DNA of 64,000 bases from Candidatus Woesebacteria bacterium (lineage in GTDB: Bacteria > Patescibacteriota > Microgenomatia > UBA8517): assembly GCA_013426185.1 (NCBI GenBank), contig CP058602.1:628549-692548 (forward strand), written 5' to 3'. Positions 19,337 to 38,118 of this stretch are shown here, piece by piece. Each line of letters starts with the position of its first letter. Positions within the stretch are counted from its first letter, which is position 1. A model generated the notes under the pieces. The model was not told the DNA's origin. It made no database searches and saw only the letters and a list, made by a program, of their open reading frames with translations. The translations under genes and the position numbers were made by a program.

Positions 19337-22318
19337 TTAAGGTATATTACCACAGTTATTGCTGCACCCGTAAGGTACGTGCTTGGGTATATATGGAACG
19401 TCCATTTTTATATTTTGTCTAAATTCATAATGCAAATGGGGTCCTGTACCATCAGAACCGCTTAGACCTATTATTTGTCCCTTGATTACTTTTTGCCCTG
19501 TTGATACTGATGATGCTGATAGGTGAGCATATCTTGTGATAATTGTTTTGCCGTTACAGGTTGACTCAACGTCTATATAAAGAGGTCTATAGGCGTTACT
19601 AGTTCTTACAACAGTTGCTGTACCCGAGTGCGTGGATATTATAGAATGACCGGTGGTAGCGGCTATGTCTATTGCCTCAACCAGTAAGTGACTAAATATT
19701 CCGCGTGGCCCTTGTGTTATCCTAAGACTCGTCTCCCCGCCCTCTGGCATTATTGGCCAACCACTAGGACATTCTTCTGGAGGATTACCTATTTTGATGG
19801 ATGCAGATCCGGCGCTTGAGACGCTTTCTCCCTCGGCATTTGTAGCAGAAACAGTTATTGTATCTATAGTAAGCGTGTCCTCAAACTGAGGCGAGGTAAA
19901 AGTTTTTTTATAGGTGAAGGTGTAAGGTGATGCTGAGTCTATTGTGCCTATATTGCTACCATTTGGTATTGCTGGATTTGGGTTTGGACAGCTTGGTATG
20001 TTATTCTTTTTTGTTACGTTACAGGTTTCGCTTATTGATATATTTGTTAGAGAACCTTTTTTTGCCTTTATTGTTATTTCGTATGTTATCTCAAGAGGGA
20101 GTTGGTTGTTTTCAAAAGAAAGTTCACTGCTTTTTCCTTTTTCTGGATATTTTTCTGAATAAGCTAGTTTTGCAACTTCTATATATTCGTTTACAACAGC
20201 TCCTGGCCCTAAAGATGCCATTTTTGTTGAAGGAGGATAAACATAAGCTCCAGAATTGATAATAAAAAGAATTATGGCAACAAGAATTGGTATGCCAATA
20301 AAGACAATAAGCATAGGAATAACAAGAGAAGCTAAAACTATATTAGTCAAAGCAAAAAATAGACCTCCCAGAAAAGCACCTATTGATGCAGCTCTTGAGA
20401 CGCTTATTACACCTACTCCGGCAACAAGGTAAAGAGGAGCACCTGTTAAAGCAAATGCTCCTACAAGAATTCCTGCTAGAATGAAAGTAAGTTTGTCTTG
20501 ATTTTTCTTAAGCCAAACTTTTATGAGACTCGCTAGATCCTTAAGCGATAATAGAGCTGTTACTGCTGATATTACTTGTCCAATAGCGGGGATAACGTTT
20601 GCGGCAAGAGCGGCCCCTAGTTTGGTGGCAGCGGCCTTGGCGGCGATTTTGGTGGCGACCTTCGAGCCTAGTTTTGCAGTCATTCCGCTGATAGCTGTGT
20701 TTAATTTGGCAACAGCGGGAATTTTATTTATGAGCTTGTCGAAGGCAAAGTTGAGTATAGGAGAAGACAAAATGTTTGGTGACGAGAAACTGCCAAAATT
20801 TAAAGAAATTGCAATAGGCAGAGATTGTCCTTGTGTGGAAATACCTATGGTGGCAAGTTGTGTGTCTAGCCAGCCGGTGCTAACAGTTACTACTTGCCCT
20901 TGGGGGGGTGGCAATTTTTTACCGGTGATAAAGCTAAAAGCTCGTGTAGCAGAGGAAACTTTGCCCGCTACTTTTTTAATTTCAGTCTCAAGACGAGCTT
21001 TTTCTGGTTTACTTAGCTGATTGTATGTTTTTTCATCTAAAATAGCATTTTTAATTTGCTTTTCCAAAGTTTGAAAGGAGACAACTTGTTCTAAAAATTC
21101 AGTTAAATTTACATTTATTCCTCCTTCTGGTATTTTCCCTTCCGGCGCAGCTTCAAGTTTTCTTATTTGAGGAGGAATAAAAAAGGGCGACCAGTCTTGG
21201 CCGAATGCTTGATTAACAAAATTAGTGGCAATAGTAGAGTCTTTTTCTAGAGAGTATAGGGCTTCAAGAGATATTCTACTAATTTCCTCTCTTGCTTTTG
21301 CGTCAGGTATTATTTTTGCTAGTTCTTCATTTTTTGGATTAGCAAAGAAAGCTAGTGTTTCAAAAGGCGAAGAATCAATAGTTATTTTTGGGTCTTTAGG
21401 ATCAATGTTTAATAATTTTAGGGTGAAAGTTTTTGCGACGATTTCAGCAGATTCTGTTTCTAAAGGATTTTCAGGATTTAATTTTGATGTTTCTATAATC
21501 CTTTCTTTTAGTTGGTCGGCAAAATTTTGTGGATCTTGGTGAGCTAATTTAACTATTTCCAGTTGTTCTTTGCTTAGTTTTATTGTTGGTTCAGGGAGAG
21601 GAGAGTAGAGATTTGTTTCTAGTGATTTTGTCTCTGTTTTTTTAATTTCAACTTCCTCTCTTTTTAATATTGACCCTACTCTTTTTAGTAGAGTTTTGCT
21701 TGAATTGGTTTTTGCTATTGTTGTTTCTGGTGTTTTTTGGAAAGGTAATATGTTAGGATTAAGAGTTTCTTTCTGAACTGCTGTTGTTTCTTTAGACAGG
21801 ATGCTTTCAGTAGGTTTAATTGAATTTGGCTGTGATGTTGATTGTTCTTGGGTTTTTGCTTGAGGGATTTTGGGTGTAGTTGTTTCTAAAATGTTAGTAG
21901 TATCTGTATCTTCTTTTACAGAAGTTTTTTCCGAAGATTTTGGTTGTTCTTTTCCTTGTGCTTTTGTAGATGAATCTTTAGCCTGGGGTATTACTGGTAG
22001 TGCTTCTTTTTTTTGTCCTGAGGCTTTTTCGTACAATGTAACTAAGTCTTCTATATTGACAGGTACTGTTGAATAGACTTCTTCTCCGCGATCTAAGGCA
22101 ATTTTCCATCCCCTTACAATTTGTATCGCGTCTTGAATACTTTCGGCTTGGGTTGCTTCTAGAAGTTTTTGTTCAAAAGTTTCTTTGTTTTGTCCAGAAT
22201 AAAAAACTGCGGGAGCAACTTTTTGATCTTCTGGATAAAATTGGTCTGGAAAGAAAGCAACACATCCGTTGTACAAGAAATCAACAACTTCTTTGCTTAG
22301 TTCGTATTTTTCTGTCAT
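19337..22318 (-). CDS. Large multidomain protein with central TM block and C-terminal M23 (LytM-type) peptidoglycan endopeptidase domain
   Basis: C-terminal M23 motifs (…LVEAIDIAATTGHSIISTHSG… and GSDGTGPHLHYEF). 3-4 hydrophobic helices near residues 560-660. T/S/P/K-rich linker region. Confidence 0.7.
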   Translation of the reverse strand: MTEKYELSKEVVDFLYNGCVAFFPDQFYPEDQKVAPAVFYSGQNKETFEQKLLEATQAESIQDAIQIVRGWKIALDRGEEVYSTVPVNIEDLVTLYEKASGQKKEALPVIPQAKDSSTKAQGKEQPKSSEKTSVKEDTDTTNILETTTPKIPQAKTQEQSTSQPNSIKPTESILSKETTAVQKETLNPNILPFQKTPETTIAKTNSSKTLLKRVGSILKREEVEIKKTETKSLETNLYSPLPEPTIKLSKEQLEIVKLAHQDPQNFADQLKERIIETSKLNPENPLETESAEIVAKTFTLKLLNIDPKDPKITIDSSPFETLAFFANPKNEELAKIIPDAKAREEISRISLEALYSLEKDSTIATNFVNQAFGQDWSPFFIPPQIRKLEAAPEGKIPEGGINVNLTEFLEQVVSFQTLEKQIKNAILDEKTYNQLSKPEKARLETEIKKVAGKVSSATRAFSFITGKKLPPPQGQVVTVSTGWLDTQLATIGISTQGQSLPIAISLNFGSFSSPNILSSPILNFAFDKLINKIPAVAKLNTAISGMTAKLGSKVATKIAAKAAATKLGAALAANVIPAIGQVISAVTALLSLKDLASLIKVWLKKNQDKLTFILAGILVGAFALTGAPLYLVAGVGVISVSRAASIGAFLGGLFFALTNIVLASLVIPMLIVFIGIPILVAIILFIINSGAYVYPPSTKMASLGPGAVVNEYIEVAKLAYSEKYPEKGKSSELSFENNQLPLEITYEITIKAKKGSLTNISISETCNVTKKNNIPSCPNPNPAIPNGSNIGTIDSASPYTFTYKKTFTSPQFEDTLTIDTITVSATNAEGESVSSAGSASIKIGNPPEECPSGWPIMPEGGETSLRITQGPRGIFSHLLVEAIDIAATTGHSIISTHSGTATVVRTSNAYRPLYIDVESTCNGKTIITRYAHLSASSVSTGQKVIKGQIIGLSGSDGTGPHLHYEFRQNIKMDVPYIPKHVPYGCSNNCGNIP

Positions 22319-22320
22319 CT

Positions 22321-24300
22321 TTATTGAATAATATCAGTTTTAATAGATATTTTTGGTTGCTCTTGTTGTGTCTGATTAAGTGCCACGTCACTTTTATTTG
22401 ATAATTCTATTGGGTTACTGGTTATAAGTTGATGTTCCTCAGGTGAAGCAACTACTCTAATAGGAGCATGGTGCGGGCCGGCGAAGAAGATTCCCTCTCC
22501 AACATTGGCTGAAAGCAAGAGCTGCTTTTCTCCTTGTGAGAGATAAAAAACTTCACCCACGCGGTCTATAGCAGTTGGCGATTGTTTTAATAGGACTCTT
22601 AGGGCGCTGTTTGTTACAATGGCTTTACCAATATCTTGAGAAAGGAAATCTTCTACATCTTGAGTAATAGTTGTTAATCCTAGGAAGTATTTTCTTGCTC
22701 TTTTAACAACGCTCCATAAAAACTGGGCTGAATCTTCATATCTCATCATATGCCAGGCTTCGTCAACAATTAGAATTCTTCTTTTGAGGTTTCTTTGTAC
22801 ACGAGTCCAAATAAAATCAAGAATCATAAACATAGCAATAGGGCGAAGAGCCTCTTGCATATCTTTAACTGAAAAAACTGTAAAGGGATTATTGATGTCT
22901 ATATTTGTTTGTTTGTCGAAAATGCCCACAAAACTTCCTTTGACAAATCTTTCTATTCTTGAAGCAAGATCAAGCGCATCTTGAGTTTCCATACCAATTA
23001 ATGTTTTATAAAGATCTTCCATAAGGGGGGGTTCTTTTTTTTGGGTACTAGGATCTTGGGTTATACCCTTTGCGTGGTATGTTGCCACTATGGCGCGGTC
23101 AAGAAGGGCTTCTTTGATAGGGTCAAGCTTCCCCATAATAACTTTAAAGAATGAATGCAGAGTGAGAATTTTTAAGCCTAGTTGATTTTCTCCCTCTGTG
23201 TAAACTTGAGAGAGATCAAAAGGATTAATCTTTGAGGGAGAGTTGAAAGAAAAGGAAATATATTCTCCTCCTACCGCCTCGCAAAGAGGTTTGTATTCTG
23301 CTTCAGGATCAAGAATGATTACTTCGGTTCCAAGCATTAAACTTCTAACAGACTCTAGTTTTACAAAGTATGATTTTCCTGCTCCAGAAGTTGCAAAAAT
23401 TGTCATATTTGAATTTTCAAGAGAAAATCGGTCAAAGATAATAAATGAGCCGTTTTGTGAATTAATGCCATATAAAACACCTTCATCTGATGAAAGTTCA
23501 GCTGATGTTAAAGGAAAGGTAGTAGCAAGAGAGGTTGAATCCATGTTGCGGGTTATTGCTAGTTTGTTAAAGCCGAAGGGAACTGTGGTTAAAAAGCCAT
23601 TTTCCATATCAAGTGTTGCTTTTTTGGCGATAATCATCAACGAGCCAAGGGTTGACTCTACCTGTTTTGTAATATGATCTAATTCTTCTATGGTCGCAGC
23701 TGGTATGGTTATGTAAAATGCAAACTCAAAAAATCTTTCAGCACCTTTTACTAATTGTTCTTGGAGGGTAAGAGCGTCCTCAAGTTTTGCCTGGGTGTTG
23801 GGATCAATTACCTTACCTCTTTCGATATCGGTTGCAATTTCAGCTTCCATTTCAGTAATTTTTCTTCGCAAATCGTCAAGAACACTTTTCCCTTCGATAG
23901 GATAGATATAGAAGGAAATATCAAGAGAATTATTAAAGTTAATTATGGGTTCAAGCCAACCTGGGCTGACAAAGCGTGGATAACCTGAAACAAAGATAGT
24001 TCGAAAATAAGTGTCGTTGATTTTAATATAATCAAAGTCGGTTTCAATAATTTTGGGAGCGATAGCATCAATCAATTCGACCTTTTTGGTAAAAATATCA
24101 ATACTGGGATTACTTATTTCCGGCTTTTCCTCAGTTGATTTTACCGTTGAATCCAAATTTAAATCTTTTACACTATTTTCTTTATTCTCGACTGGTTGAA
24201 GATTGTTTGGTCCATAAGTAGGCTCTGGCGTTTGATAGAGAACTTCTTGATTATCTTTTTTTGTTTCTTCTTTGTTTTTTTTCTTTAAGATGTTAAACAT
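22321..24300 (-). CDS. VirB4/TrbE/CagE-family type IV secretion ATPase (ATPase body)
   Basis: Walker A FATSGAGKSYFVK. Walker B RILIVDEAWHMM. Conserved TQ motif (LTTITQD). Start taken as the internal MFNILKK methionine rather than the 24366 start that overlaps the upstream ORF. Confidence 0.75.
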   Translation of the reverse strand: MFNILKKKNKEETKKDNQEVLYQTPEPTYGPNNLQPVENKENSVKDLNLDSTVKSTEEKPEISNPSIDIFTKKVELIDAIAPKIIETDFDYIKINDTYFRTIFVSGYPRFVSPGWLEPIINFNNSLDISFYIYPIEGKSVLDDLRRKITEMEAEIATDIERGKVIDPNTQAKLEDALTLQEQLVKGAERFFEFAFYITIPAATIEELDHITKQVESTLGSLMIIAKKATLDMENGFLTTVPFGFNKLAITRNMDSTSLATTFPLTSAELSSDEGVLYGINSQNGSFIIFDRFSLENSNMTIFATSGAGKSYFVKLESVRSLMLGTEVIILDPEAEYKPLCEAVGGEYISFSFNSPSKINPFDLSQVYTEGENQLGLKILTLHSFFKVIMGKLDPIKEALLDRAIVATYHAKGITQDPSTQKKEPPLMEDLYKTLIGMETQDALDLASRIERFVKGSFVGIFDKQTNIDINNPFTVFSVKDMQEALRPIAMFMILDFIWTRVQRNLKRRILIVDEAWHMMRYEDSAQFLWSVVKRARKYFLGLTTITQDVEDFLSQDIGKAIVTNSALRVLLKQSPTAIDRVGEVFYLSQGEKQLLLSANVGEGIFFAGPHHAPIRVVASPEEHQLITSNPIELSNKSDVALNQTQQEQPKISIKTDIIQ

Positions 24301-25003
24301 TTTGATTTTCCTCCTCCTTTTTAGGAACCGGCGGCTTTGAATTAAAAATATTATAGTAGAGATCAATTAATTGGGCTGTAGTTAGCTGTCTTAATGTTAT
24401 ACCCAATCTCCTTGCCTGTCTTATTAAATGATCTCTTTTTGGGTAAAGTGAGATTTTGGCTTTTTTTAAAGCGTAAGATTTTGGGAATGGAAGTTTTTGC
24501 CCTCTTTTTATAATTGTCGAGGCCGATTTGGCTATTCCCATTTCAAGTGGGCTAAAAGGAACAACTATGTAAAAGCTTTTCCCCAATACATTTCTTTTTT
24601 TAATAATTTCATTTACAAAGCTTTTGTAACGACTCATTAAAGAAGCAAGTTTTGGATTTTTAATCTTTTGTTCTGCTGACTCAAGATATTCTATGTATTT
24701 TGAAATATCTTTAATTTGCGAGCGAACAATTATCTGAATTGGGAAAGAAAGCGAGTTTAGAAGCGCAGCATAAGCAAAAATGACTGCTTGTTGTTCTTTT
24801 TCTGAAAGCAAAGAAAAATTAAGAGAAGTTGACTCAAGCACTATTGCAGCTCCGCCATCTTTAAAAAGAACAATATTATCGACAATATCGGCAATGGGTA
24901 GAAAATCTTGAGTAGTAGAAATAATAGGAGTATCGGGCATACTAAGGTAGGGTATTTTTAGAGGTATTTTTTTAATTTTGTCTTTCATATTAGTTAATTG
25001 CAT
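24293..25003 (-). CDS. Protein resembling the N-terminal (CagE_TrbE_VirB-type) domain of VirB4; possible split VirB4
   Basis: Segment …FLPIADIVDNIVLFKDGGAAIVLESTSLNFSLLSEKEQQAVIFAYAALLNSL… resembles the VirB4 N-domain pattern. It lies immediately upstream of, and overlaps, the ATPase ORF in a different frame. Confidence 0.4.
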   Translation of the reverse strand: MQLTNMKDKIKKIPLKIPYLSMPDTPIISTTQDFLPIADIVDNIVLFKDGGAAIVLESTSLNFSLLSEKEQQAVIFAYAALLNSLSFPIQIIVRSQIKDISKYIEYLESAEQKIKNPKLASLMSRYKSFVNEIIKKRNVLGKSFYIVVPFSPLEMGIAKSASTIIKRGQKLPFPKSYALKKAKISLYPKRDHLIRQARRLGITLRQLTTAQLIDLYYNIFNSKPPVPKKEEENQNV

Positions 25004-26042
25004 TTGGTGTTGTTTGCGTTGATTTGGCTCTGATTAATATAGGTGGAATGATTTCTCCTTTTGCTTCAAAAGTGGCAGGTTCAAATTCATAACCTTCTTT
25101 CTCAGTAATAATATCGTATTGTCCGTTGGCAAGCGCGGTGACGATCATAAAGTGGCCGAGTTTATTTGACCTTATAGCACGAACAGGTCGGCCGGCAATA
25201 TCTCTTATTTCAAGTATTGCTCCTTCGATAATTTTTCCATTTTGATCTAACACTTGTCCTGTTATCGTGTTCGGAATGGTTGGTGGAAGTGGAGGTGCTG
25301 CTTCGGCTGAAAACTGAACTTGCTGTGATGCTTTTGGTGGCTCTTTTAGTATAGGAGTAACCTGTTGAAGGGATAAGGAAGGCTGTGCGTTTGGTTGTGT
25401 TTCAGCTATTTTTTCTTCGACAACGATTTTGGGTCTGAACGATTTTGGTTGGGTAGTGGGTGCAACTACTGTCTGAGGTCTAACGGGCGCTTGATTAATA
25501 ACTACTGGAGTGGGAGTAGGAGTAGCAACTTGAGCCTGGTTTGCGGATTGACCTTCTTTGATGACCACATTTCCTTGTCTGAAAAGGCTCAATATTCTTG
25601 AGAGAAAATTTTCCTCACCGCTTTCTAATTTATTAAGAGCTCCCTCGTTTTCAGTTGGCACTTTTTTAAGGTATTCTTCAACTTTTTGTTCAGCTTGTGT
25701 TTGTGGAGCTTGAGCTTGAGCCATCTCTTCGTCTTGAAAGAATTTGTAGCCAGCTTGGTTTTTTTGCCAAAGGTAAATGGTAGGGGAATATACAGAGCGA
25801 AAGAAGGCAATTATCCAACGGCTCAACGGCCTTTCTTCAAAAGGTAAAAATGCAAGAGCTGCTCCAAGCGAAACAGAAAACAAAATTAATGGCCATTTGA
25901 TAAAAGGATGAAGGCCAGTTGAATAGATTAAAAGACCCACTAAAGCTCCACCCCCAAGCTGGAAGAATTGTTTTAAAGTCATATCTCCTACCAATCTGAA
26001 CTGGTAGGAACTTATCTGTTGTGGTATCGGATGAGTCTCCAT
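24990..26042 (-). CDS. VirB3/PrgI-like two-TM membrane protein with Pro/Gln/Thr-rich linker and C-terminal beta-sandwich (carboxypeptidase-regulatory-like) domain
   Basis: Two N-terminal hydrophobic helices (GGGALVGLLIYSTGL…, WPLILFSVSLGAALAFL). Position upstream of VirB4. C-terminal GQVLDQNGKIIEGAILEIRD…GHFMIVTALANGQYDIITEKEGY pattern. Confidence 0.4.
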   Translation of the reverse strand: METHPIPQQISSYQFRLVGDMTLKQFFQLGGGALVGLLIYSTGLHPFIKWPLILFSVSLGAALAFLPFEERPLSRWIIAFFRSVYSPTIYLWQKNQAGYKFFQDEEMAQAQAPQTQAEQKVEEYLKKVPTENEGALNKLESGEENFLSRILSLFRQGNVVIKEGQSANQAQVATPTPTPVVINQAPVRPQTVVAPTTQPKSFRPKIVVEEKIAETQPNAQPSLSLQQVTPILKEPPKASQQVQFSAEAAPPLPPTIPNTITGQVLDQNGKIIEGAILEIRDIAGRPVRAIRSNKLGHFMIVTALANGQYDIITEKEGYEFEPATFEAKGEIIPPILIRAKSTQTTPNAIN

Positions 26043-26459: not shown

Positions 26460-26544
26460 AGTATTCCTTTTAACTTTTAACTTTTACCTACATATAACTT
26501 TACCCCGTGAAGAGTCTTGTGCAACCCCTCAAAGGTTTTCACAG

Positions 26545-28468: not shown

Positions 28469-30070
28469 TTATTTTACTTGGCCCATAGCGCGGAGCATGT
28501 CAAAGAATTTTTTACCTCTAGCTGTTCCTTCTGGAATCGCTTTTCCTTGTGGAATAGACTTGTATCTAATTTCGCTTTCTGTGGCTGTATATTGAAGTCC
28601 CATTTTACCAACTCCTACGGCCGGCGCCACAGCCTCGCCGATTGCAGTTCCATAAGCAAATGGCTTGCCTTCTATCATACTCTTTATTATATCAGCTACT
28701 TTGGGAATCATCATATAGATCGCGAAACTTGCAAGCATCCAGAGGAACCTCCCACTGTTTGTGCCCCAAGTTAAAGGCGGGTCCCAGTTTGTAGTTGATT
28801 CTAGAGCCCTGGGTGATATTTGAAAAGGTGCCGCGCGTGCCAGAAAATCACCAACGGTGGAGCCGCCTGTTGCCTGAACAGCAAAAAAGAAGGCGAGAAA
28901 GAACATTACTCCTACGGTTGGATAAACAGCAAGATTGGCAATAAAATTTTTAGCCCACTGCCCAAATCCTCCTCCTATCGGACTAACTATTCCAATCAAG
29001 ATTTGTAAAGGAGCAGCAACAATTGAAAGGATTATTGATACATAGGTTTTTATCATCAGCCACAGAATTTTGAAAGAATTAAAGATAGTTGCTATTAGAA
29101 CTACAAAGAAAAAGAGGATGAGAAGGAAACCGCCAAAGAATCCTGCCGAGAAGATTGTGGCTATAGTGCCAAGCAAAAACATTAACACATAGTGCCAAGA
29201 AAGAACTAAAACATTTCTATCACTTGTTAGATCCTTAAATAGATCTATGGCCGAATAGCCTGAATCTACTAGCCCAGAAGCCTTTATGATTGAAGAGGTT
29301 ATCCCTATGACAACATACATCAAATCTATTAAGAAACCTGCAATTGCGTAGGAAAAGGTTATTAAGACAAGACCGATCACTACTTTAGGAAGAGCTGACT
29401 GAACGGTTATAACGGCTTGGGGAGATATTTTAACCCTGAACATTATCATCAAAGCAAAAGCAATGATAATTATAATCAGAAGGCCGTAAGATATATTTCT
29501 TGTTGCTTGCCACAGCCTTTGTACAGCTGCTCCGCCTGAAGTATAGCCAAAGCCTTGAGCTTTAGCTTCAGGCAAGCTGGTTAGTTTTGAAATTTTTCTT
29601 AAGAGATATCCGGTCCCTGAGAGTTCGTTATTGTAAAGGAAGGAATAGAGAGAAAAGTTGTGGTCCCTTGCTAGTTGGGTTCCTGTTTCGTTATCGGTTA
29701 TTAGCCTTATGGGAAAAGAGAAGAAGTTGTACATTCTTTCTATCACTTCCTTTAGGACTTGGACAGCCCCTGTAATACAACTTCCTAGGTCAGCGGAGAA
29801 GACGCAGATCCAGGGTTCTGGTCGCCCTAAGGTAAGAGCGGTCATCATGTGAGCTGGTATGGAATAAAATATCCAATTGACTTGTGCTGCTGTATATCTT
29901 TCTCCGAAAATCTCGGTTGGGTTTGAGACATCAAACGTTTTTACGTACCATTCGGGGTAGTCTTGGTGAAACCATAAATTATCAGCAGCGAAAGCTTGAG
30001 AGGATGAAGCGGGAAGAATGAAAATGGCAATTAAAATCGAGATGATTATTTTTTTAATAGTTTTTTTCAT
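28469..30070 (-). CDS. Signal-peptide-bearing polytopic membrane protein, VirB6/TrbL-like by architecture
   Basis: Signal sequence IIISILIAIFILPASSSQAFA, then an ~170-aa N-terminal domain, then at least 6 TM helices. Architecture and T4SS context only. Confidence 0.4.
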   Translation of the reverse strand: MKKTIKKIIISILIAIFILPASSSQAFAADNLWFHQDYPEWYVKTFDVSNPTEIFGERYTAAQVNWIFYSIPAHMMTALTLGRPEPWICVFSADLGSCITGAVQVLKEVIERMYNFFSFPIRLITDNETGTQLARDHNFSLYSFLYNNELSGTGYLLRKISKLTSLPEAKAQGFGYTSGGAAVQRLWQATRNISYGLLIIIIIAFALMIMFRVKISPQAVITVQSALPKVVIGLVLITFSYAIAGFLIDLMYVVIGITSSIIKASGLVDSGYSAIDLFKDLTSDRNVLVLSWHYVLMFLLGTIATIFSAGFFGGFLLILFFFVVLIATIFNSFKILWLMIKTYVSIILSIVAAPLQILIGIVSPIGGGFGQWAKNFIANLAVYPTVGVMFFLAFFFAVQATGGSTVGDFLARAAPFQISPRALESTTNWDPPLTWGTNSGRFLWMLASFAIYMMIPKVADIIKSMIEGKPFAYGTAIGEAVAPAVGVGKMGLQYTATESEIRYKSIPQGKAIPEGTARGKKFFDMLRAMGQVK

Positions 30071-30136
30071 TTTTTAAAAAGTGTCCTACCTTTTATTTTA
30101 GAGCGATTTTGGTCTTAAAGGCAATAGGCAGTTGGT

Positions 30137-30652
30137 TCAGGGATTTTTATTTTCGCAAAAACTTAGACCATAATTTTTTCCTGCATATTCTGGATTAGCA
30201 TAACTTGGTGTTGTGATATTTACTTTAAGGTAGCAAGCTTCTTGTTGACTAATTTTCAATTTATCAAGCAATGCTTTTTCGGCTTCAGTTCTAATTTCAT
30301 CAAACGGAGAACTGAGTATAGATATAAGAAATGAATTATCAACAGGAATATACATTATTTGGTAATCCTTTTTATCGATAAATTTAGCAAAACCATCCTT
30401 TTTAATTTCAGTTGCTTCTCTATAAAAATTGTTGACCTCTATCCCTGAAATTTTTATTTTTGGCGACTCTTGATCAATTTTTGTTTCCAAATCTTTTGGC
30501 AAAAAGGGGGAAGTTGTGGGTTGTATGGTTTTTTGGGGCTCGGTAATTTCGCTTTTGGGATAGGGAATAAAAATTCCTATTAAAGCAAAAACAGCTACAG
30601 CGAGAAAAGAAAAGATCAGAATTTTGTTTTTGTCAATTTTTTTTATGGGCAT
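30137..30652 (-). CDS. Small bitopic membrane protein (N-terminal TM anchor plus ~140-aa external domain), candidate VirB8-like component
   Basis: Anchor ILIFSFLAVAVFALIGIFIPY. Size and topology fit VirB8-type proteins. No sequence motif confirmed. Confidence 0.35.
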   Translation of the reverse strand: MPIKKIDKNKILIFSFLAVAVFALIGIFIPYPKSEITEPQKTIQPTTSPFLPKDLETKIDQESPKIKISGIEVNNFYREATEIKKDGFAKFIDKKDYQIMYIPVDNSFLISILSSPFDEIRTEAEKALLDKLKISQQEACYLKVNITTPSYANPEYAGKNYGLSFCENKNP

Positions 30653-32985
30653 TTTGATATATCAAGGCCACAAGCTTTAGCTGCGTTTATCCATGGGCAC
30701 CAAGGGCTGTATCCTCTACTTTTCAAGTCTTTTGTCAAAGCAACAGCCTTTTGTATATTATTGGTAGGATCAAAAAACATATTAGCGCATTCAATTACTC
30801 TGTCCTTGTCCTTAATTGTACACATTGGTCGATTTTTATCAAAGGGTGTTCCACCGTCACAGTGTGCCAAAAGGTTTATTTGAAAAAGTCCGATACTGTA
30901 GTCAAAACTACTACCGCTTAAACATCCACAATTGATGGCGTCTGGGTTGCCACCACTTTCAGTGTTGCAAATACAAGACGCGGCTGCAGCATCACCTGGG
31001 TCAAAAAACTGGCTAAGATATGATTGACTACAGTATCCTCCTCCAGGAACAGCCCCACTTGGAGAGCCGCTGTTTCCTGCAGGTGAAGAAGTACAAAGAC
31101 CGGTTGGGTCTGTTCCGCCACCACTTTGTAATTCTTGCCCGACAGAGGCAATGGATTTTTCGCTACAGGCTGATGGTATCCCTCCTATTTCAATACCTCC
31201 TATGAAAGGAATCCAGCCTGGGAGTCTTATTCCTTTTGTGCAAGCGACAATTTGGTCGTGACGATCTTGTCTTGCTCTTGGCGTTACTTCATTGGCTCTG
31301 CCTGTTAGCTGAGTTGCTGGCCTTTGCGAGTTAAGAGTGTTGATTTTGATTTTGTTTTTCCACTGAATTTCTTGAGGCAAGAGCTTGTTTAGTGGACCTG
31401 AAAACGTTGTTATTCTTTTTAGATCTGCTTCCTCTTTGTGGCTTAAAGGGTCGTCTTCGGCTCTATAGAGCGTGCCGTTTAAGTACCAGCTTAGGTATTC
31501 ATTTGCGCGGTCGGCTTCGGGAATCTTCTGGCCTGTGGTTAGACCAGCTGGTGCTCCCCCAAACTCTTTAGGCCTTAGAGCAGTCTGGATGCCCAGTAGG
31601 AAATAGTCATATATGCCTCCGAGGTGGGGAAAATAAAGCTGGGGGTTTTGGGTAGAAAGGTTGGCTCCGTCGCCATTAATATTATATTCTACATTTGAGG
31701 ACGCGGGGATGTCTTTTATTTTTTCATAAGGAGAGTTGGGGCTTGTTTTTGGCATTATTCTCCTGAAAATGGACGAGTTGCCAGCAGTTGTTTTGCTCCA
31801 AATTTCATCTACAAGAGGGGTGAAAGTTTCAACCTGAGCTGATAGTTCTGCTGTATTTGTGCATTCTCCTCTGAGGGAACAAAAACCGGAAGAGCAGTCC
31901 CATACTGCTGGACAATCAAAAGAAGCTGTATATGTTATTTTGGCAGCAGGTGCGCCTGTTGACTTTTGAGCTCTTTTGTCTATTTGTTCCCCAAACAATT
32001 GATCTCCGGGGTTATAGCGCGATTCTAGAATAGTGCACCCTGATTGCTGCCTTACAGCATTAATATCGCCAGCTTTGATGCTTTGAGCTTGTCTGTTGTC
32101 TAGATTTTCTTTTGGGGCGAATGTGGATTGTAACAGTGTTGTTAGTTCTACCCCTTCCTCAAGGTGGGGAAAATAAAGGACGCCCTCTCTTGTGGTAGTG
32201 TTTTTGGTCCTCGGGTCGTCTGATTTTTGTTTCCATTCTGTTCTTAAGTTTTTTATCTCAAAATTGGTTGAGGGCATGGAGCTAAAGTCAGACAATCTTA
32301 TTTTGCCGATTCTATCTTCGGTGGAGGAATAGGGTATGTATGGAAAAAGCGCGGCCCAGAAATCTGGCTGGAGGGGGTTGTTAAAGCAGAACAGAATCTT
32401 GAAACCAATTATTGGTATAGTTACCTCTGCGCAGGTTTTACCTCTCCATTCCTGGTATGCTGCATAATAGTCTTTCAGATTTGAATATCGAGAGGGGTCT
32501 GGTGGCAAACGGTCTTTCCATTCTGCTAGTCTTTTCTCGTTTTCTCCAAGAGACGATGTTTTTCCCCGAGGAACAAGTTCCGTGTTGCCTGCTATTGGCA
32601 GTTCGGAATTAAAAGCATTGACCGAAATCTCGACCTCCTTTGGAACGTTGCAATGGCAGGTAGTGTTTGAATTCCCTGAAGCGGCTTGAGGGGGGTCGCA
32701 TCGGCAATGGGAACTGTTAACATTGGTTGTAAAGGTTTGCCTTATGACGAAATCTTTTCCACAAAGCAGAGATTGCTCTTCATCCTTGATGGGTACTTGG
32801 CAGGGGCTTGCTTGATAAGGCCTTAAAGAGTGCCACTCTGGTTTTTTGGTTTGATCGCAGGGAACGTAGGGTTCGGGAATTGGGGCAGGGTTGGTAGCGT
32901 AGACTTTTTGGGTAGAAGATAGAAAAGCTAATAGGAAAAAGAGAGAAAAAACAAAACTAAGTCTTTTTTTGAATAAACCTGGCAT
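30643..32985 (-). CDS. Secreted cysteine-rich 780-aa protein with C-terminal GH23/SLT-type lytic transglycosylase domain (VirB1-like function)
   Basis: Signal peptide LSFVFSLFFLLAFLSSTQKVYA. Many Cys. C-terminal CICNTESGGNPDAIN…SIGLFQIN matches the SLT catalytic ES…GLMQI signature. Confidence 0.6.
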   Translation of the reverse strand: MPGLFKKRLSFVFSLFFLLAFLSSTQKVYATNPAPIPEPYVPCDQTKKPEWHSLRPYQASPCQVPIKDEEQSLLCGKDFVIRQTFTTNVNSSHCRCDPPQAASGNSNTTCHCNVPKEVEISVNAFNSELPIAGNTELVPRGKTSSLGENEKRLAEWKDRLPPDPSRYSNLKDYYAAYQEWRGKTCAEVTIPIIGFKILFCFNNPLQPDFWAALFPYIPYSSTEDRIGKIRLSDFSSMPSTNFEIKNLRTEWKQKSDDPRTKNTTTREGVLYFPHLEEGVELTTLLQSTFAPKENLDNRQAQSIKAGDINAVRQQSGCTILESRYNPGDQLFGEQIDKRAQKSTGAPAAKITYTASFDCPAVWDCSSGFCSLRGECTNTAELSAQVETFTPLVDEIWSKTTAGNSSIFRRIMPKTSPNSPYEKIKDIPASSNVEYNINGDGANLSTQNPQLYFPHLGGIYDYFLLGIQTALRPKEFGGAPAGLTTGQKIPEADRANEYLSWYLNGTLYRAEDDPLSHKEEADLKRITTFSGPLNKLLPQEIQWKNKIKINTLNSQRPATQLTGRANEVTPRARQDRHDQIVACTKGIRLPGWIPFIGGIEIGGIPSACSEKSIASVGQELQSGGGTDPTGLCTSSPAGNSGSPSGAVPGGGYCSQSYLSQFFDPGDAAAASCICNTESGGNPDAINCGCLSGSSFDYSIGLFQINLLAHCDGGTPFDKNRPMCTIKDKDRVIECANMFFDPTNNIQKAVALTKDLKSRGYSPWCPWINAAKACGLDISKCP

Positions 32986-33027: not shown

Positions 33028-33330
33028 TTATTCCTGATAGATGATTTTGAATTGGGTAACGTCTACTCCTGTGAATTGATAAATTAACTTAAGTATTAAA
33101 AAAGACATTGCAAGAAGTACGATGCCAAAGATGGCGTAAGTTATGGTTTTTTTTGCTGCTTCTGCTTGCTGAGGGTTGCCTCCTGCAGTTATATAGTTAA
33201 ATCCGCCAACAATAAGCATTATAAAGAGGACTATTCCTGCAAATTCAAGCGCTACTTTTACTATGTTTCCAAAATAAGTTTCAATGTCTGATAGCTTTGC
33301 TGGTGGTTCTGCTGTTGTTGTTGATTCCAT
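33028..33330 (-). CDS. Pilin-like small membrane protein, paralogue 1 of 8 (VirB2/TrbC-like two-helix architecture)
   Basis: Shared motif ITAGGNPQQAEAAKKTITYAIFGIVLL between two hydrophobic helices. Confidence 0.55.
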   Translation of the reverse strand: MESTTTAEPPAKLSDIETYFGNIVKVALEFAGIVLFIMLIVGGFNYITAGGNPQQAEAAKKTITYAIFGIVLLAMSFLILKLIYQFTGVDVTQFKIIYQE

Positions 33331-33377
33331 CAGAGACGATTATAGCAAAAGCAGTAAAAAAAAAGAAGCTTGAGACT

Positions 33378-33773
33378 TTATTGATTAACAGTAGGAATCT
33401 GAAGGTTAAAAATGTTAACACCAAAGAAGGTTCCAATTAAGCCAGCTATTGCCCAAGCGGCAAAGACAATAACCAAGCCAACCAAGGCAGCAGTAATTTG
33501 AGCTCTAGCTTGTTCTGTTTGACCTTTATCGCCACCCGAGATAATCCAACGTATTCCGCCGATTACCAAAATAAAGAAGAAAACAATTGCTGCAATAACC
33601 AAAGCCAGTTTTAGAAGACCCGCAATAATACCTCCTATGGTTAGGTTAGCGACAGTTCCAGCTAACTGGTCGTTTGTTGGTTTTAAGTTTATTGTATTTC
33701 CTTGAGCCAAGACTTCTAGAGCTAAGCTTTTCATATTTCCCATATTATCTAATTTTTGTATTGTTTTTGTCAA
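33378..33773 (-). CDS. Pilin-like small membrane protein, paralogue 2
   Basis: Motif IISGGDKGQTEQARAQITAALVGLVIV. Two hydrophobic helices. Confidence 0.55.
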   Translation of the reverse strand: MTKTIQKLDNMGNMKSLALEVLAQGNTINLKPTNDQLAGTVANLTIGGIIAGLLKLALVIAAIVFFFILVIGGIRWIISGGDKGQTEQARAQITAALVGLVIVFAAWAIAGLIGTFFGVNIFNLQIPTVNQ

Positions 33774-33775
33774 GA

Positions 33776-34146
33776 GGGGAATTGGTCGAAGCTAATCGGA
33801 AGACTGTATTTAGTATTTTGTATTATGTATTATGGGAAATCCAAGTAGTAAGTAGAACGTAGTAAGTAGAAAGCAAAATTAATAAATAGTTAAAAGTTCA
33901 AAGTGCAAAATTCAAAGTTGGAATTTATTTGTTTGGAATTTGTAATTTGGAATTTGCCTGCCCTGAACCGAATTTATTCTGGTTCAGGGTTTAGAATTTA
34001 GATATTAGAATTTAGGATTTGGACCTTGTAATTTGGAGCTTGGAATTTGTTTGTAATTTGTATATTGGAATTTGTGATTTAATTCTATAATCTATAATCC
34101 AAAATCTATAATCTAATCATCAAGTTTTGATTTTGAGTTAATCCGT
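33776..34146. repeat. Dispersed AT-rich repeat family, copy R2 (inverted copy of R1; same orientation as R3)
   Basis: Matches the reverse complement of 6640..6900 over ~280 bp. Contains the perfect 9-bp-stem hairpin ccctgaacc(n13)ggttcaggg at 33962..33990. Confidence 0.7.
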
Positions 34147-34148
34147 CT

Positions 34149-34472
34149 CTATTCAAGAAAATTTATCCTTAATTCTAGAAGTTTAATTCCAAAGAAGTTC
34201 TCAAGTATATAAATTATAGCGAAAAGAGAAAGAAGAATGACTAGTCCAATGACAGCGTTGGTTATTTTGCTTTTTGCTGATTCGATGGCTGCTTTATCTC
34301 CTCCTGAAATAATCCATTGAATAGCGCCCACAATAATTATGGCTACGAAGATAATGGCGCCAACAATAAAACTTAGACTGATTAAATTTGGCAAGAGCTT
34401 GTTAAAAAACTCAGTTCCTGAAAGGTTTCTGACACCTTCTCCTAGAGCTGGATTTTTAATACCTTGGTCCAT
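34149..34472 (-). CDS. Pilin-like small membrane protein, paralogue 3
   Basis: Motif IISGGDKAAIESAKSKITNAVIGLVIL. Confidence 0.55.
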   Translation of the reverse strand: MDQGIKNPALGEGVRNLSGTEFFNKLLPNLISLSFIVGAIIFVAIIIVGAIQWIISGGDKAAIESAKSKITNAVIGLVILLSLFAIIYILENFFGIKLLELRINFLE

Positions 34473-34475
34473 AAG

Positions 34476-34856
34476 TTATTTCCAAATGTTTTCAACAAAC
34501 TGAGCTGGATTGAGAATTAGGCTAATACCCAAGATTTTTCCCACCAGTTCGATCAGAAAGATGGAAGCGACAACAACGACAAGACCTATAAGAGCGTTAA
34601 ATATTCTTTTTCTGGCTGATTCAAGAGCTCCTTTGTCTCCACCTGATGAGATCATTGCAATTGCACCTGAAACGAAAACAAAAATAAACCAGAGCCCAGC
34701 GACAATAGTTAAAACACCTATAACTCCTGAAATGAAGGAGTTAAAAATGGTTGGGGCAGTTTCAGGGTTGCTTTGTTCAAGACCCAGCCTGCCAAAGCCC
34801 TTAAAGCCCTCATTTGGCGAAAGCGGTATGTCTGCAGCAATTAGTTTTGAGATCAT
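34476..34856 (-). CDS. Pilin-like small membrane protein, paralogue 4
   Basis: Motif ISSGGDKGALESARKRIFNALIGLVVV. Confidence 0.55.
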   Translation of the reverse strand: MISKLIAADIPLSPNEGFKGFGRLGLEQSNPETAPTIFNSFISGVIGVLTIVAGLWFIFVFVSGAIAMISSGGDKGALESARKRIFNALIGLVVVVASIFLIELVGKILGISLILNPAQFVENIWK

Positions 34857-35188
34857 AGGCTTGGAATTTTAGGTCTAAGCAAGAAAAAGTAATCGTTGAA
34901 AACCAATTTTCCAAAAATAGCTGCCAAAACAAAAGAGCCAGCTGCAACAGCAAGGCCTAAAAGTGTTTGCCAAATTTTTGCCCAAGCACTTGCTACTTTT
35001 TTAGGATCATCGCTTGCTGAAATGAAAGCATAACCGGCTAGAATTAAATTAATCAAAGCATAAATGCCGGCAATGATTATTAAAGTTCTGAGAATTAAGT
35101 CCAAAAGCTTGCCTATAGCTCCACTTTCAACCGAGCCAAACTTGCTGATTGCTTCAGGTGAATTTATTGGTCCAAAGACTTGTAACAT
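34853..35188 (-). CDS. Pilin-like small membrane protein, paralogue 5
   Basis: Motif ISASDDPKKVASAWAKIWQTLLGLAVA. Confidence 0.5.
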   Translation of the reverse strand: MLQVFGPINSPEAISKFGSVESGAIGKLLDLILRTLIIIAGIYALINLILAGYAFISASDDPKKVASAWAKIWQTLLGLAVAAGSFVLAAIFGKLVFNDYFFLLRPKIPSL

Positions 35189-35192
35189 AAGA

Positions 35193-35513
35193 CTAAATTG
35201 TCGGCTGGGTAATAAAATTGTTACCAGTTATTATTTCAATAATTCTTATTACCCAGTACGCTCCAAATATTATTATAAACCCTATTATAGCAGTTGTGAC
35301 AGCTTTTTTCCCTTTTTCAATTTTTTGAGGATCGGAGGAGCCCGCGCCTGAAATTAGAGAGATTCCGGCGAAGATAAAAAGAAACAAGATTATTATGCCA
35401 CTAACAGCAAAAGATGCGTTTAAGATTAGTGTTATGAGGTCTCCTATTCCTTTGGTGTTGCCAAAAGGAGAACCAAAAGTACTTCCTATGTCAATTGCTA
35501 AGCTTTTCATCAT
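35193..35513 (-). CDS. Pilin-like small membrane protein, paralogue 6
   Basis: Motif ISGAGSSDPQKIEKGKKAVTTAIIGFIII. Confidence 0.5.
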   Translation of the reverse strand: MMKSLAIDIGSTFGSPFGNTKGIGDLITLILNASFAVSGIIILFLFIFAGISLISGAGSSDPQKIEKGKKAVTTAIIGFIIIFGAYWVIRIIEIITGNNFITQPTI

Positions 35514-35830
35514 TATTGGAACGTTTGTCTTATTTTATCAAGTCCTAAAACAGCAGCTACTATCTGCACAATCCAGTAGGATGCAAAAATTATAACAAAA
35601 CCAATTAGAGCTTGGGTAATTTTGCTTTGTGCTTCCTGCGCTTTTTTAGGATCGCCTGCTGAAGTTAAATACTGAAACCCGCCAAGAATCAGGTAGATGA
35701 GAAGAAGAATTCCGGCGACAGCAAAAATGTATTTTAAAGATTCACCAACTATTGTACCCACATTTCCACCCGCAAACTTGAGTCCGATACTGCCTTCTAA
35801 TTGTTGATAATTAACTTGAGCTAGGTTCAT
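35513..35830 (-). CDS. Pilin-like small membrane protein, paralogue 7
   Basis: Motif LTSAGDPKKAQEAQSKITQALIGFVIIF. Confidence 0.55.
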   Translation of the reverse strand: MNLAQVNYQQLEGSIGLKFAGGNVGTIVGESLKYIFAVAGILLLIYLILGGFQYLTSAGDPKKAQEAQSKITQALIGFVIIFASYWIVQIVAAVLGLDKIRQTFQ

Positions 35831-35835
35831 AGTTT

Positions 35836-36375
35836 TTACGATAAACCTGGAATCTTAAGTATACTAACTCCAATTACTCTTAAAATAAAAACAGAAAAAA
35901 TCAAAAGGATTAATCCCATTATAGCCGAACTTAGAAGTTCTTTTCCTGCCTGAAGCCTTTTAGGGTCTCCTTGCGATGTCATAATTTGAAATGAGGCGAT
36001 AATAATTAAGATAAAAGCTATTCCTCCTGCAATACCAATCGCCCATTTAAGTATAAATTCTATCATTCCCTGCTGCTCAATTGGGATACAACCAATGGCG
36101 GTATCAATACAGTCGCCTTTTAGGGCAGAGATACCAGCAGCAGGATTGGCAACCCCTCTTGGTAGGGGTACTATGGTCGAATTGGGGTCGTCTTGACAAT
36201 AGCCATTTACACAGATCAAGCCAGTTTGACAGGAGTCGGGCGGGCCTCCAGCTAAGTTGCAGCATCTCTCCCCAATTAGACCGCATTGAATTGGAGATTG
36301 TGCTGAAACTTTTCCTTGCGCCAGGGACAACAAAAGAAATAAGCTGGCAAGGAAGGTAATTATATTTTTTCTCAT
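35836..36375 (-). CDS. Pilin-like protein, paralogue 8, with added N-terminal signal peptide and 8-Cys-rich ectodomain (candidate minor or tip pilin)
   Basis: Signal peptide, then CGLIGERCCNLAGGPPDSCQTGLICVNGYCQ, then the family motif MTSQGDPKRLQAGKELLSSAIMGLILLIF. Confidence 0.55.
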   Translation of the reverse strand: MRKNIITFLASLFLLLSLAQGKVSAQSPIQCGLIGERCCNLAGGPPDSCQTGLICVNGYCQDDPNSTIVPLPRGVANPAAGISALKGDCIDTAIGCIPIEQQGMIEFILKWAIGIAGGIAFILIIIASFQIMTSQGDPKRLQAGKELLSSAIMGLILLIFSVFILRVIGVSILKIPGLS

Positions 36376-36438: not shown

Positions 36439-38118
36439 ATGACGATGTCAAAAGCCCGCTTGTTGATTTTGCTAAGAAAAGTCTTTTTTCTTTTGTTTTT
36501 GGTCTCATTTTTTTATCTTTTTAAAAATGTTGTTTTTGCTCAAACCTGTCCCACTACTGATTATGATTGCCAGATAAGAGAAATTCAAAAAGAAATTGAT
36601 CTTTTAAAACCCGCTCATGAGAAAAATAAAGCTGAGCTTGATGGTCTTAAAAAGCAACTTGCCAATCTTGATAAAAGAATTAAAAATCTTTCTTTGAAAT
36701 TGAAGGAAAATGAAGCTGAGATAGAAAAAAGGGAAGAGGATTTAGCTTATGCCAAAGAAATTTTCAATCAGAAAGCAAACAGCCATTATCGCTTTTTAAG
36801 GCTTTATGATCCGATTATTCCCTTTCTTTCAGCCCCTTTAGCCTCAGAGGCTTTTAAGGAAATTAATTTCAGGCAGAGAGCGATTGATGATGACAGGCGG
36901 ACGATGGAAAAATATGCTCAAGATCTTTTGGAACTTAAAAGTGATAGAGAAACTTTGGAGAAGAATAAGACTAGCCTTGCTTCTTTGAAAAAACAGGTTG
37001 ATGAAAGAGCTACTTTTTTGGCAGGTGAGGTTGAAAAAACAGAAAAATATTTGGCTTCTTTGTCGGCAAAACAGGAGGCAATACTTGCAGCAAAAAGCGG
37101 CAGTTTTATTGCCAGTGTTGGAGATAGTGAACTTGCGGATGATTATTATGCTTCAATCAAAGGTTTTCGTGAAGCGGCACCTCCTGGTTCCTATGCTGTT
37201 TTTGCTTTTGGCGCTTATACCCATCGCAAAGGCATGAGCCAATATGGAGCAAGAGGAAGGGCTAATTCAGGGGCAAACTACAAAGATATTCTAAGGGCTT
37301 ATTATGGCAAGGAACCGGTTAAAAAAGATACCGGTGGAACGATTAATGTTTCAGGAGTGGGAACGGTTGATTTTGAAGGATATTATCTTTTGGGAATTGC
37401 TGAAATGCCATCTACCTGGCATCCCGAAGCCTTGAAAGCTCAGGCGGTAGCAGCAAGAACTTATGCCTATCGTTATAAAGTTGAGGGAAGATCTATTTGT
37501 ACAACTGAATCTTGTCAGGTTTTTAGGAAGTCAAAAGCTGATAATTCTCCTGAGGCTTGGAGAAAAGCGGTTGAAGAAACAAGAGGGGAGGTTTTGGAAG
37601 ATGTAATTACTTTTTATTCCTCAACTGCAGGTGGGTATTTGACGACAATGGGTTGGGATACAACAGATGGCTCGGGTGGCGGAAATTTTCTTGATAAATC
37701 CTATGAGAAAATTGGTGGCTCGCCTTGGGTTTATAAGGCATGGTACACCAAAGACTATAGCCCCCAAAGTGATAAGTGTGGAAGAAGTAATCCTTGGTTA
37801 ACAAGCGAGGAATTAGCAGACATTATCAATGCCGCGCGTTATCGTGATGAAAGAGTTACCCCTGTTACAACCGCTTGTTGGGGTGGCAATCCTTATTCTT
37901 ATGAAGAATTAAGGCGAAAAGCCAATGGTCCATCAAGGGTAAATTCGGTTAGTGTAATTCAAGGTAATGGTTCAACCAGTAAGGTAATTTTTCAGACAGA
38001 TATTGGCCAAATTGAATTGTCAGCTGATGAATTCAAAACCGCCTTTAATCTTCGCGCTCCCGGTTATCTTAAAATTCCCCAGAAAGGGTACACCTTCTTT
38101 AACATTGAAAAGAAGTAG
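36439..38118 (+). CDS. SpoIID/LytB-domain protein with N-terminal signal anchor and coiled-coil region
   Basis: SpoIID signatures YTHRKGMSQYGARGRANSGANYKDILRAYYG and ALKAQAVAARTYAY. N-terminal heptad-rich region. Confidence 0.75.
   Translation: MTMSKARLLILLRKVFFLLFLVSFFYLFKNVVFAQTCPTTDYDCQIREIQKEIDLLKPAHEKNKAELDGLKKQLANLDKRIKNLSLKLKENEAEIEKREEDLAYAKEIFNQKANSHYRFLRLYDPIIPFLSAPLASEAFKEINFRQRAIDDDRRTMEKYAQDLLELKSDRETLEKNKTSLASLKKQVDERATFLAGEVEKTEKYLASLSAKQEAILAAKSGSFIASVGDSELADDYYASIKGFREAAPPGSYAVFAFGAYTHRKGMSQYGARGRANSGANYKDILRAYYGKEPVKKDTGGTINVSGVGTVDFEGYYLLGIAEMPSTWHPEALKAQAVAARTYAYRYKVEGRSICTTESCQVFRKSKADNSPEAWRKAVEETRGEVLEDVITFYSSTAGGYLTTMGWDTTDGSGGGNFLDKSYEKIGGSPWVYKAWYTKDYSPQSDKCGRSNPWLTSEELADIINAARYRDERVTPVTTACWGGNPYSYEELRRKANGPSRVNSVSVIQGNGSTSKVIFQTDIGQIELSADEFKTAFNLRAPGYLKIPQKGYTFFNIEKK

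Follow-up and report, generated by a model that had tools for sequence, protein, structure and literature searches.

Introduction

What does a large, cysteine-rich and apparently exported protein do in the middle of a type IV secretion system (T4SS) gene cluster? The question is raised by a gene for a protein of 780 amino acids (aa) in a stretch of 64,000 nucleotides (nt) from an ultra-small Candidatus Woesebacteria bacterium (GenBank assembly GCA_013426185.1, contig CP058602.1, positions 628,549 to 692,548, forward strand). This whole stretch is called the window, and coordinates refer to it. An original prediction, made from the letters of the sequence, had described a secreted protein ending in a VirB1-like lytic transglycosylase. 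We put the probability at roughly 0.6 that the protein is a dedicated peptidoglycan glycosidase of the T4SS/pilus of Woesebacteria, an analogue of VirB1 and EtgA and not a homologue of them.

T4SS clusters are widespread in Patescibacteria, and Southlakia cannot grow as an epibiont without its own cluster, which includes the pilin array (PMC10633639). In Woesebacteria, the gene of a predicted wall-cutting enzyme is part of such a cluster and comes straight after the pilin genes.

The C-terminal domain is closest to C-type lysozymes

The putative enzyme resides in the last 130 residues of the protein, hereafter the tail. The relevant features are:

30646..31035, minus strand: C-terminal lysozyme-like domain (Pfam SLT_3), aa 651-780, from profile and model evidence
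31036..31149, minus strand: linker rich in Gly, Ser and Pro, aa 613-650, recognized from the sequence; model confidence (predicted local distance difference test, pLDDT) <50
30958..30960, minus strand: codon of Glu676, invariant, aligned with Glu35 of C-type lysozyme; the predicted general acid
30895..30903, minus strand: codons of Asp695-Tyr696-Ser697, the start of DYSIGLFQIN; Asp and Ser are invariant

The tail had been assigned to glycoside hydrolase family 23 (GH23) on the basis of an ES...GLFQI signature. The motif itself is present (E676-S677 and G699-L-F-Q-I703), but the family assignment was not borne out by the profile search: Pfam SLT/GH23 (PF01464) scored 14.8 bits with the full protein and 20.5 bits with the tail alone, below the gathering threshold of 21.3 bits. 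Sub-threshold matches to this profile were found in 10 of 22 aligned family members and were restricted to the ES..GLFQ stretch. In contrast, Pfam SLT_3 (PF18896, “Lysozyme like domain”; gathering threshold 27 bits) covers aa 661-762 and reached 30.6 bits (E = 4.6e-7) with the tail alone, compared to 26.4 bits with the full-length protein. All 22 aligned tails matched SLT_3, with a best E-value of 1.8e-13, and Pfam Lys (PF00062) was matched by only three of them (E about 0.03).

Across the 22 tails, Glu676-Ser677, Asn685, Asp695, Ser697, Gly699-Leu-Phe-Gln-Ile-Asn704, Trp762, Trp765 and several Cys residues are invariant. Structure modeling, which had been proposed as a check, gave a confident model of the tail (pLDDT 91.7) with a fold nearest to C-type lysozyme (GH22) and GH23 transglycosylases in second place. 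E676-S677 end the helix at model positions 23-37 (protein aa 663-677). When a profile of the tail family was searched against all PDB sequences, the best 60 matches were C-type lysozymes only (best E = 2.4e-5). The resulting alignment places Glu676 on Glu35, DY..G.FQIN on TDYGIFQIN and W..W on Trp109 and Trp112; of the seven conserved Cys columns in the tail, three align with lysozyme Cys30, Cys65 and Cys77. C-type lysozymes have four conserved disulfides.

Five reference proteins were then scored with one tail profile at one database size. Human lysozyme reached 23.8 bits, hen lysozyme 14.8, MltE 6.6, VirB1 1.3 and Slt70 −0.7. The sequences of MltE and Slt70 (Escherichia coli) and of VirB1 (tumor-inducing plasmid of Agrobacterium tumefaciens C58) were fetched; those of the two lysozymes were entered by hand, and the human one reproduces the PDB alignment. 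In hhalign, lysozyme again came first with a probability of 74-78%, ahead of MltE (48%) and VirB1 (5%, E 0.0075). A family-level match of the tail to A. tumefaciens VirB1 was not obtained by profile (1.3 bits) or by hhalign (5%), and the tail is too divergent for VirB1 profiles. Since profile, hhalign and fold comparisons all favor lysozyme, the nearest characterized relatives of the tail are, at the level of sequence and model, GH22 lysozymes rather than GH23/VirB1 enzymes. The domain is bacterial, and its closest solved relatives are lysozymes of animal type.

The relationship is distant. Identity to C-type lysozyme/alpha-lactalbumin (GH22, PF00062) is only about 19-20%, and, unlike these proteins, the tail stems from a bacterial host and is fused behind a 650-aa unrelated region. 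To our knowledge, GH22 is essentially an animal family. The hairpin of the tail is two residues longer than that of lysozyme, so that Asp695 may or may not correspond to the catalytic Asp: it reaches lysozyme Asp53 only via a two-residue gap, and in the model Ser697 takes this place by strand register. Cleavage by GH23 transglycosylases is non-hydrolytic, uses a single acidic catalytic residue and yields 1,6-anhydroMurNAc; with an invariant Asp695 in the hairpin, hydrolysis is possible as well. A similar catalytic ambiguity is known from EtgA, a lysozyme/transglycosylase “hybrid” of a type III secretion system (PMC10880428). Overall, the data support a lysozyme-superfamily wall glycosidase domain with predicted activity.

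Further searches with the tail gave few hits. Using tblastn, nothing was found in plasmids and one weak match in phages (Streptomyces phage Forthebois, E 0.02); a word-indexed homolog search with the tail alone returned three proteins only. One of these, P0121, was rejected as a stand-alone tail gene, since it is a piece of a full-length family member truncated by a scaffold gap.

The gene has a fixed place in a chromosomal T4SS cluster

The gene lies in a run of T4SS and cell wall genes, of which the following could be assigned:

36439-38118: 559-aa protein with SpoIID domain, divergent
33028..36375, minus strand: eight paralogous VirB2-like T4SS pilins in a row, upstream of the gene; order kept across species
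28469..30070, minus strand: 533-aa polytopic protein resembling VirB6 in position and topology, without Pfam match
24990..26042, minus strand: PrgI/VirB3-like protein
24293..25003, minus strand: TrsD-like protein
22321..24366, minus strand: VirB4 ATPase
19337..22318: 993-aa protein with an M23 peptidase domain at its end; follows VirB4 directly

The order in the window is the divergent SpoIID gene, the eight pilins, the gene for the 780-aa protein, a gene termed p171 (171 aa), the 533-aa polytopic gene, a divergent 634-aa gene, an Avd-like gene, PrgI-like, TrsD-like, VirB4 and the 993-aa M23 peptidase. The end of the 780-aa ORF overlaps p171 by 10 nt. A scan for promoters and terminators was uninformative, with no intrinsic terminator standing out in the gene run and counts at chance level. 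A relaxase or coupling protein was not seen among the scanned ORFs of the window. Searches of NCBIfam and PHROGs gave nothing for the 780-aa protein, p171, the VirB6-like protein or the 634-aa neighbor.

The cluster is chromosomal and close to oriC; dnaA and dnaN (15608-18299) are adjacent, flush with the T4SS genes. This matches the published trend, as T4SS of Patescibacteria are described as monoderm-type systems in chromosomal clusters which are often origin-proximal (PMC12102498). According to the same survey, VirB6 homologs are scarce in Microgenomatia (PMC12102498), and the 533-aa polytopic protein is likely the “missing” VirB6 of this group.

The arrangement recurs in 80 species-level loci. 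Of these, 70 have pilin genes upstream of the family gene and 71 have the polytopic gene on its downstream side. Where the pattern fails, the contig usually ends there; a small number of loci, for example L063 and L065, are rearranged. PrgI, TrsD and VirB4 follow downstream wherever the contig extends far enough. Because the family gene is flanked from locus to locus by the pilin array on one side and the VirB6-like gene on the other, we assume a dedication of the protein to the T4SS.

VirB1 homologs are rarely linked to virB4 outside Paceibacteria, and the survey concluded that the VirB2 pilus apparently needs no VirB1, for which other glycosidases might substitute (PMC12102498). The family described here is a candidate for such a substitute. 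The designation “VirB1-like” thus holds for the position in a T4SS cluster and fails for the sequence. In Southlakia, homologs of a peptidase and a lysozyme immediately downstream of virB4 are reported to be essential (PMC12102498). In and around the cluster of the window, we count three peptidoglycan-active proteins, namely the lysozyme-like protein, the M23 protein and the SpoIID protein.

A chromosomal location near oriC, flanked by SpoIID and M23 wall enzymes, would also suit a housekeeping autolysin for growth or division, with the T4SS genes being neighbors by chance. We consider this very unlikely, since the gene keeps its place between pilin array and VirB6-like gene across 80 species, since the family is apparently confined to the lineage which has the cluster, and since the swaps of the catalytic domain between close relatives described below are not expected of a housekeeping enzyme.

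Export signal and cysteine content

The complete gene and its export signal are located as follows:

30643..32985, minus strand: whole ORF, 780 aa plus stop; ATG at 32985, stop codon at 30643-30645
32896..32985, minus strand: signal-peptide-like N-terminus, aa 1-30, with KKR, a hydrophobic segment at aa 4-22 and VYA followed by T

A protein identical to the ORF product is present on a public metagenome contig. Alignments with homologs begin within residues 1-10 of the 780-aa protein, from which we conclude that the start codon is assigned correctly. The only hydrophobic segment of the protein comprises aa 4-22, with K6-K7-R8 ahead of it and VYA-T behind, and was modeled as a helix (4-23). A comparable N-terminal hydrophobic segment was detected in 116 of 118 homologs starting with Met. 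The predicted secretion therefore stands, and export is very likely as far as the N-terminus allows one to judge. Judging from the residues, the signal would be cleaved between VYA and T.

The protein contains 28 Cys residues (3.59%) compared to 0.66% in the 54 other ORFs of the window, which is a 5.5-fold enrichment (binomial P = 1.3e-12). The claim of a high cysteine content was correct in this respect. However, analysis of the spacing showed that the residues are not spread throughout the protein but occur in three patches (seven in aa 31-120, four in aa 341-400 and 12 in aa 621-780) with few between. Likewise, the length of 780 aa was given correctly, although the protein is large rather than the “giant” it had been called. 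The majority of its Cys residues belong to conserved family columns. Since these Cys are conserved and the protein is predicted to be exported, they point to structural disulfides.

The N-terminal region defines a family in Woesebacteria

The N-terminal part of about 600 aa had been reported to lack recognizable homology. Indeed, no match was found in Pfam, NCBIfam, PHROGs or PDB sequences, but the region belongs to a conserved family. A word-indexed search recovered 239 relatives of the 780-aa protein. A HMMER scan of 1.84 billion representatives gave 886 matches with E-values up to 1e-3, of which 536 had values of 1e-30 or lower; the named matches are all from Woesebacteria or Microgenomates. 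Judging from this conservation, the N-terminal region is the family-defining part of the protein and not an orphan.

Three modules can be delimited:

32545..32895, minus strand: module A, aa 31-147, from BLAST segments, conserved columns and the model (pLDDT 67-98)
31552..32544, minus strand: module B, aa 148-478, the best-conserved core
31150..31530, minus strand: module C, aa 486-612, from the order of BLAST high-scoring segment pairs and multiple matched stretches; poorly modeled

A 400-aa N-terminal core was modeled confidently, with a fold for which no solved relative was found. In module A, strands 71-88 and 106-123 pair into a long beta-hairpin whose tip carries CxC...CxC, and the motifs SLRPYQASPC and ELPIxGNTE are conserved. 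Module B carries PYIPYSSTEDR, LYFPH(L/M)EE, RxNPGD and LYFPHLGG..YFLxGIQTALRPK, as well as a second long hairpin (347-363/374-390) bearing C358, C364, C369 and C375. Many homologs have Cys-rich insertions at the tip of this hairpin. The modules are permuted within the family, with the order A-B-C in the query and its close relatives and A-C-B in most other members.

The motif LYFPH(L/M) occurs twice (aa 270-275 and 450-455, about 32161-32178 and 31621-31638), each time at the end of a beta-strand which is followed by a helix, and both His residues are nearly invariant. STEDR, the twin LYFPH(L/M) and NPGD may hint at a binding or catalytic site, which was not substantiated. The two His residues together with the conserved E223/D224, E277 and D328 could be a metal or ligand site, again without support found. 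Two more specific ideas were discarded. An internal duplication of the module, to which the twin motifs had pointed, was rejected, as hhalign aligned 7 columns only at 20% probability; a Zn-hydrolase (H274-x-x-E277 ... H454, E223/D224, D328) is speculation, since it has no fold or profile support.

A further scan, covering one genome per species, yielded 83 loci with family members. Informative titles among these loci are all Woesebacteria, Microgenomates or Patescibacteria. Titles reading “uncultured Gammaproteobacteria bacterium” appear to be placeholders or wrong taxon labels, because the loci so labeled bear the same Woesebacteria-type gene cluster. Loci with such titles from metagenome-assembled genomes that are GTDB representatives include L011, L015, L016 and L020-L022.

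The tail is exchanged as a cassette together with p171

Two features describe the 3′ part of the gene and what follows it:

30137..30652, minus strand: p171, 171 aa, with an N-terminal transmembrane (TM) anchor; strict partner of the SLT_3-type tail
30134..31134, minus strand: exchangeable cassette consisting of linker, SLT_3 domain and p171, delimited by the DNA-homology breakpoints against a close relative

By their last 150 aa, the members of the family can be sorted into at least six groups which are not connected by BLAST, SLT_3 being the second commonest type (26 of 115). In P0005, identity to the query is 73% across aa 1-635, after which the C-terminus is unrelated. At the DNA level, blastn of the window against the related locus L088 gave homology from 33076 to 31135, where it breaks off, and a resumption at 30133. 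The comparison indicates that the tail swap between the query and the P0005 relative is recent.

p171 has a conserved C-terminal domain of about 100 aa with two conserved Cys. No relative of p171, and thus no known lysozyme inhibitor, was detected in Pfam or PDB sequences. In 11 of 11 SLT_3-type loci, a p171 homolog follows the family gene and precedes the polytopic gene; none of the 57 loci with other tails has one there. A pair of loci (L088, L089) serves as control: P0004 has an SLT_3 tail and the partner, P0005 has another tail and no partner. Furthermore, a free-standing SLT_3 protein of 175 aa at L091 is followed by a p171 homolog (E = 1e-31). Next to this pair (L091 2365-3082), MazE and PIN are listed. 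The c5 tail type, recognized by MEGG...RYNGGGN motifs, is accompanied in three of four loci by a TM-anchored partner of its own which is unrelated to p171. For the two commonest non-SLT_3 types, no gene intervenes between the family gene and the VirB6-like gene in 26 of 28 (c1) and 8 of 11 loci (c3).

None of the alternative tails matched Pfam. Comparing the types by hhalign, c4 and c6 were linked at 96%, c3, c4 and c5 at 40-60%, and c4 to MltE at 36%.

The large conserved N-terminal module dominates the protein, and one family member, P0019, has no recognizable tail at all. Both would fit a structural or adhesive part of the T4SS/pilus, in which a catalytically dead tail acts as a glycan- or peptidoglycan-binding module. 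Alpha-lactalbumin is a non-enzymatic member of GH22. However, the catalytic Glu-Ser and the DY..GLFQIN hairpin are invariant in 22 of 22 tails, a pattern of selection on an active site, and a dangerous enzymatic activity better explains a dedicated partner gene. A pure binding function is therefore improbable.

The exchange of tails can be read in another way. The protein may be a polymorphic wall effector directed at a host, with an N-terminal part for delivery or adhesion, swappable tails as “warheads”, and p171 and the c5 partner as immunity proteins. As in polymorphic toxins, a conserved N-terminus is joined to a sharply bounded C-terminal replacement, with identity of 73% to a relative until about aa 617-635 and none thereafter, and a small downstream gene co-varies with the tail for the SLT_3 type and mostly for c5. 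The sharp DNA breakpoints at 31135 and 30133, the unlinked tail clusters, the strict linkage of p171, the free-standing two-gene unit at L091 and the separate c5 partner all agree with this, as do the Cys-rich insertions at the module B hairpin tip in many homologs. In addition, a gene directly after the pilins takes the position of the VirB5-type tip protein in Agrobacterium. The diversity of tails is accounted for better by an effector than by a dedicated T4SS glycosidase. On the other hand, partner genes accompany only two of the at least six tail types, so that c1 and c3 lack an obvious immunity gene, and even the c5 partner is missing at one c5 locus. p171 is unlike any known lysozyme inhibitor, and a tail partner might equally be an activator or an anchor. 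Moreover, in contrast to polymorphic toxins, the family gene occurs once and at a constant place in the operon of a secretion apparatus, and orphan cassettes were not seen. We regard an effector as a tentative possibility with odds well below even. If it were true, the relaxase-less T4SS of the candidate phyla radiation would gain a concrete job, the breaching of a host envelope.

A predicted role in opening the cell wall

Returning to a dedicated T4SS/pilus glycosidase, to which we gave a probability of roughly 0.6, the following sequence of events can be proposed. The protein would be exported by the Sec pathway through its N-terminal signal-like segment and would fold outside the membrane, where the conserved disulfides would stabilize it. 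The N-terminal module of about 600 aa, given the rigid synteny, might tether the enzyme at the T4SS/pilus or at the wall, as EscI does for EtgA. The lysozyme-superfamily tail would then cleave the backbone between N-acetylmuramic acid (MurNAc) and N-acetylglucosamine (GlcNAc), using Glu676 as general acid and the beta-hairpin bearing Asp and Ser. In this way the wall would be opened for a pilus or channel; the bacterium's own wall and that of a host are both conceivable targets. Tail and membrane-anchored p171 would form an exchangeable unit, in which p171 most likely restrains or positions the matching type of lysozyme. EtgA and EscI provide a precedent for a secretion-system glycosidase with a mixed lysozyme/transglycosylase active site which is held by a partner (PMC10880428).

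What the analysis demonstrates is the fold and family of the tail, its conserved catalytic residues, the excess of cysteine, the synteny, the cassette and the link between tail type and partner gene; export, disulfides, enzymatic activity, docking and the function of p171 are predictions. Several points weigh against it. The docking role of the N-terminal module is deduced solely from conservation and position, and the enzymatic activity of family members is likewise a prediction. The tail is swapped among no fewer than six sequence types, and two of these have a partner gene of their own; such variety is unusual for an enzyme that opens only the organism's own, constant wall. For the commonest type, c1, no lysozyme similarity was detectable by hhalign. 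Finally, the cluster already has SpoIID-like and M23 wall enzymes, so the 780-aa protein may not be the hole-maker. The swappable tail and the strictly co-inherited p171 offer a testable handle on whether p171 is an inhibitor or immunity protein or an activator, and on whether the own or a host wall is cut.

Comparison with known systems

Like virB1, the gene is encoded within a T4SS cluster, both in the window and in the 80 related loci. Unlike A. tumefaciens VirB1 and EtgA of EPEC (GH23 family 1), the protein is three times larger and has a conserved N-terminal module, and its T4SS is of the monoderm type (similar to mating-pair formation class MPF-FATA), in contrast to VirB1 systems. It has more in common with PrgK (pCF10), TraG (pIP501) and CwlT (ICEBs1), which are also large, exported, T4SS-encoded proteins with a muramidase or SLT-type domain and belong to systems of the same broad class with VirB4, PrgI and TrsD (PMC12102498). 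However, these proteins combine the glycosidase with a CHAP, NlpC/P60 or LytM peptidase in one chain. In the 780-aa protein, no peptidase domain was detected using Pfam, NCBIfam and PHROGs, and M23 is provided by the separate 993-aa gene. The N-terminal module has no counterpart in PrgK, TraG or CwlT. The Pfam SLT_3 entry includes the tail as a member and does not cover the N-terminal module, the cassette behavior or the partner gene. Thus, three traits are unusual for a secretion-system wall hydrolase: a bacterial domain resembling C-type lysozyme, an N-terminal module without solved relative, and cassette exchange together with a cognate gene.

Further observations on the gene cluster

The eight pilins (179, 105, 106, 111, 126, 107, 131 and 100 aa) are individually orthologous and occur in the same order in about 70 Woesebacteria genomes. 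The array thus looks like a fixed multi-pilin set rather than a recent tandem amplification. The first pilin (35836-36375, minus strand) has a Cys-rich N-terminal extension (8 Cys, 4.5%; ...QCGLIGERCCNLAGGPPDSCQTGLICVNGYCQ...) ahead of its T4SS_pilin domain, and this paralogue is present in two or three copies in some species.

Within the cluster, a gene at 26085-26459 (minus strand) encodes a four-helix-bundle protein similar to Avd and the 23S rRNA intervening sequence protein (IVP). Of 80 related loci, 15 contain homologs, and the position of these differs between loci. The 5′ end of the gene, together with the upstream DNA (26400-26589, compared to L088 6146-6335), is 96.8% identical, while the flanking genes are only about 73% identical. 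A second island of 80 nt with 96% identity lies inside the VirB6-like gene (28629-28708).

In some species, pairs resembling toxin-antitoxin genes are inserted between the family gene and the VirB6-like gene. Inspected by eye, the pair at L059 (3346-4180) is similar to nucleotidyltransferase/HEPN and the pair at L071 (10883-11373) to HicA/HicB. Downstream of the cluster in the window, an OLD-family AAA/TOPRIM nuclease and a serine recombinase are adjacent to each other (47126-50334) and may constitute a small defense or mobile island.

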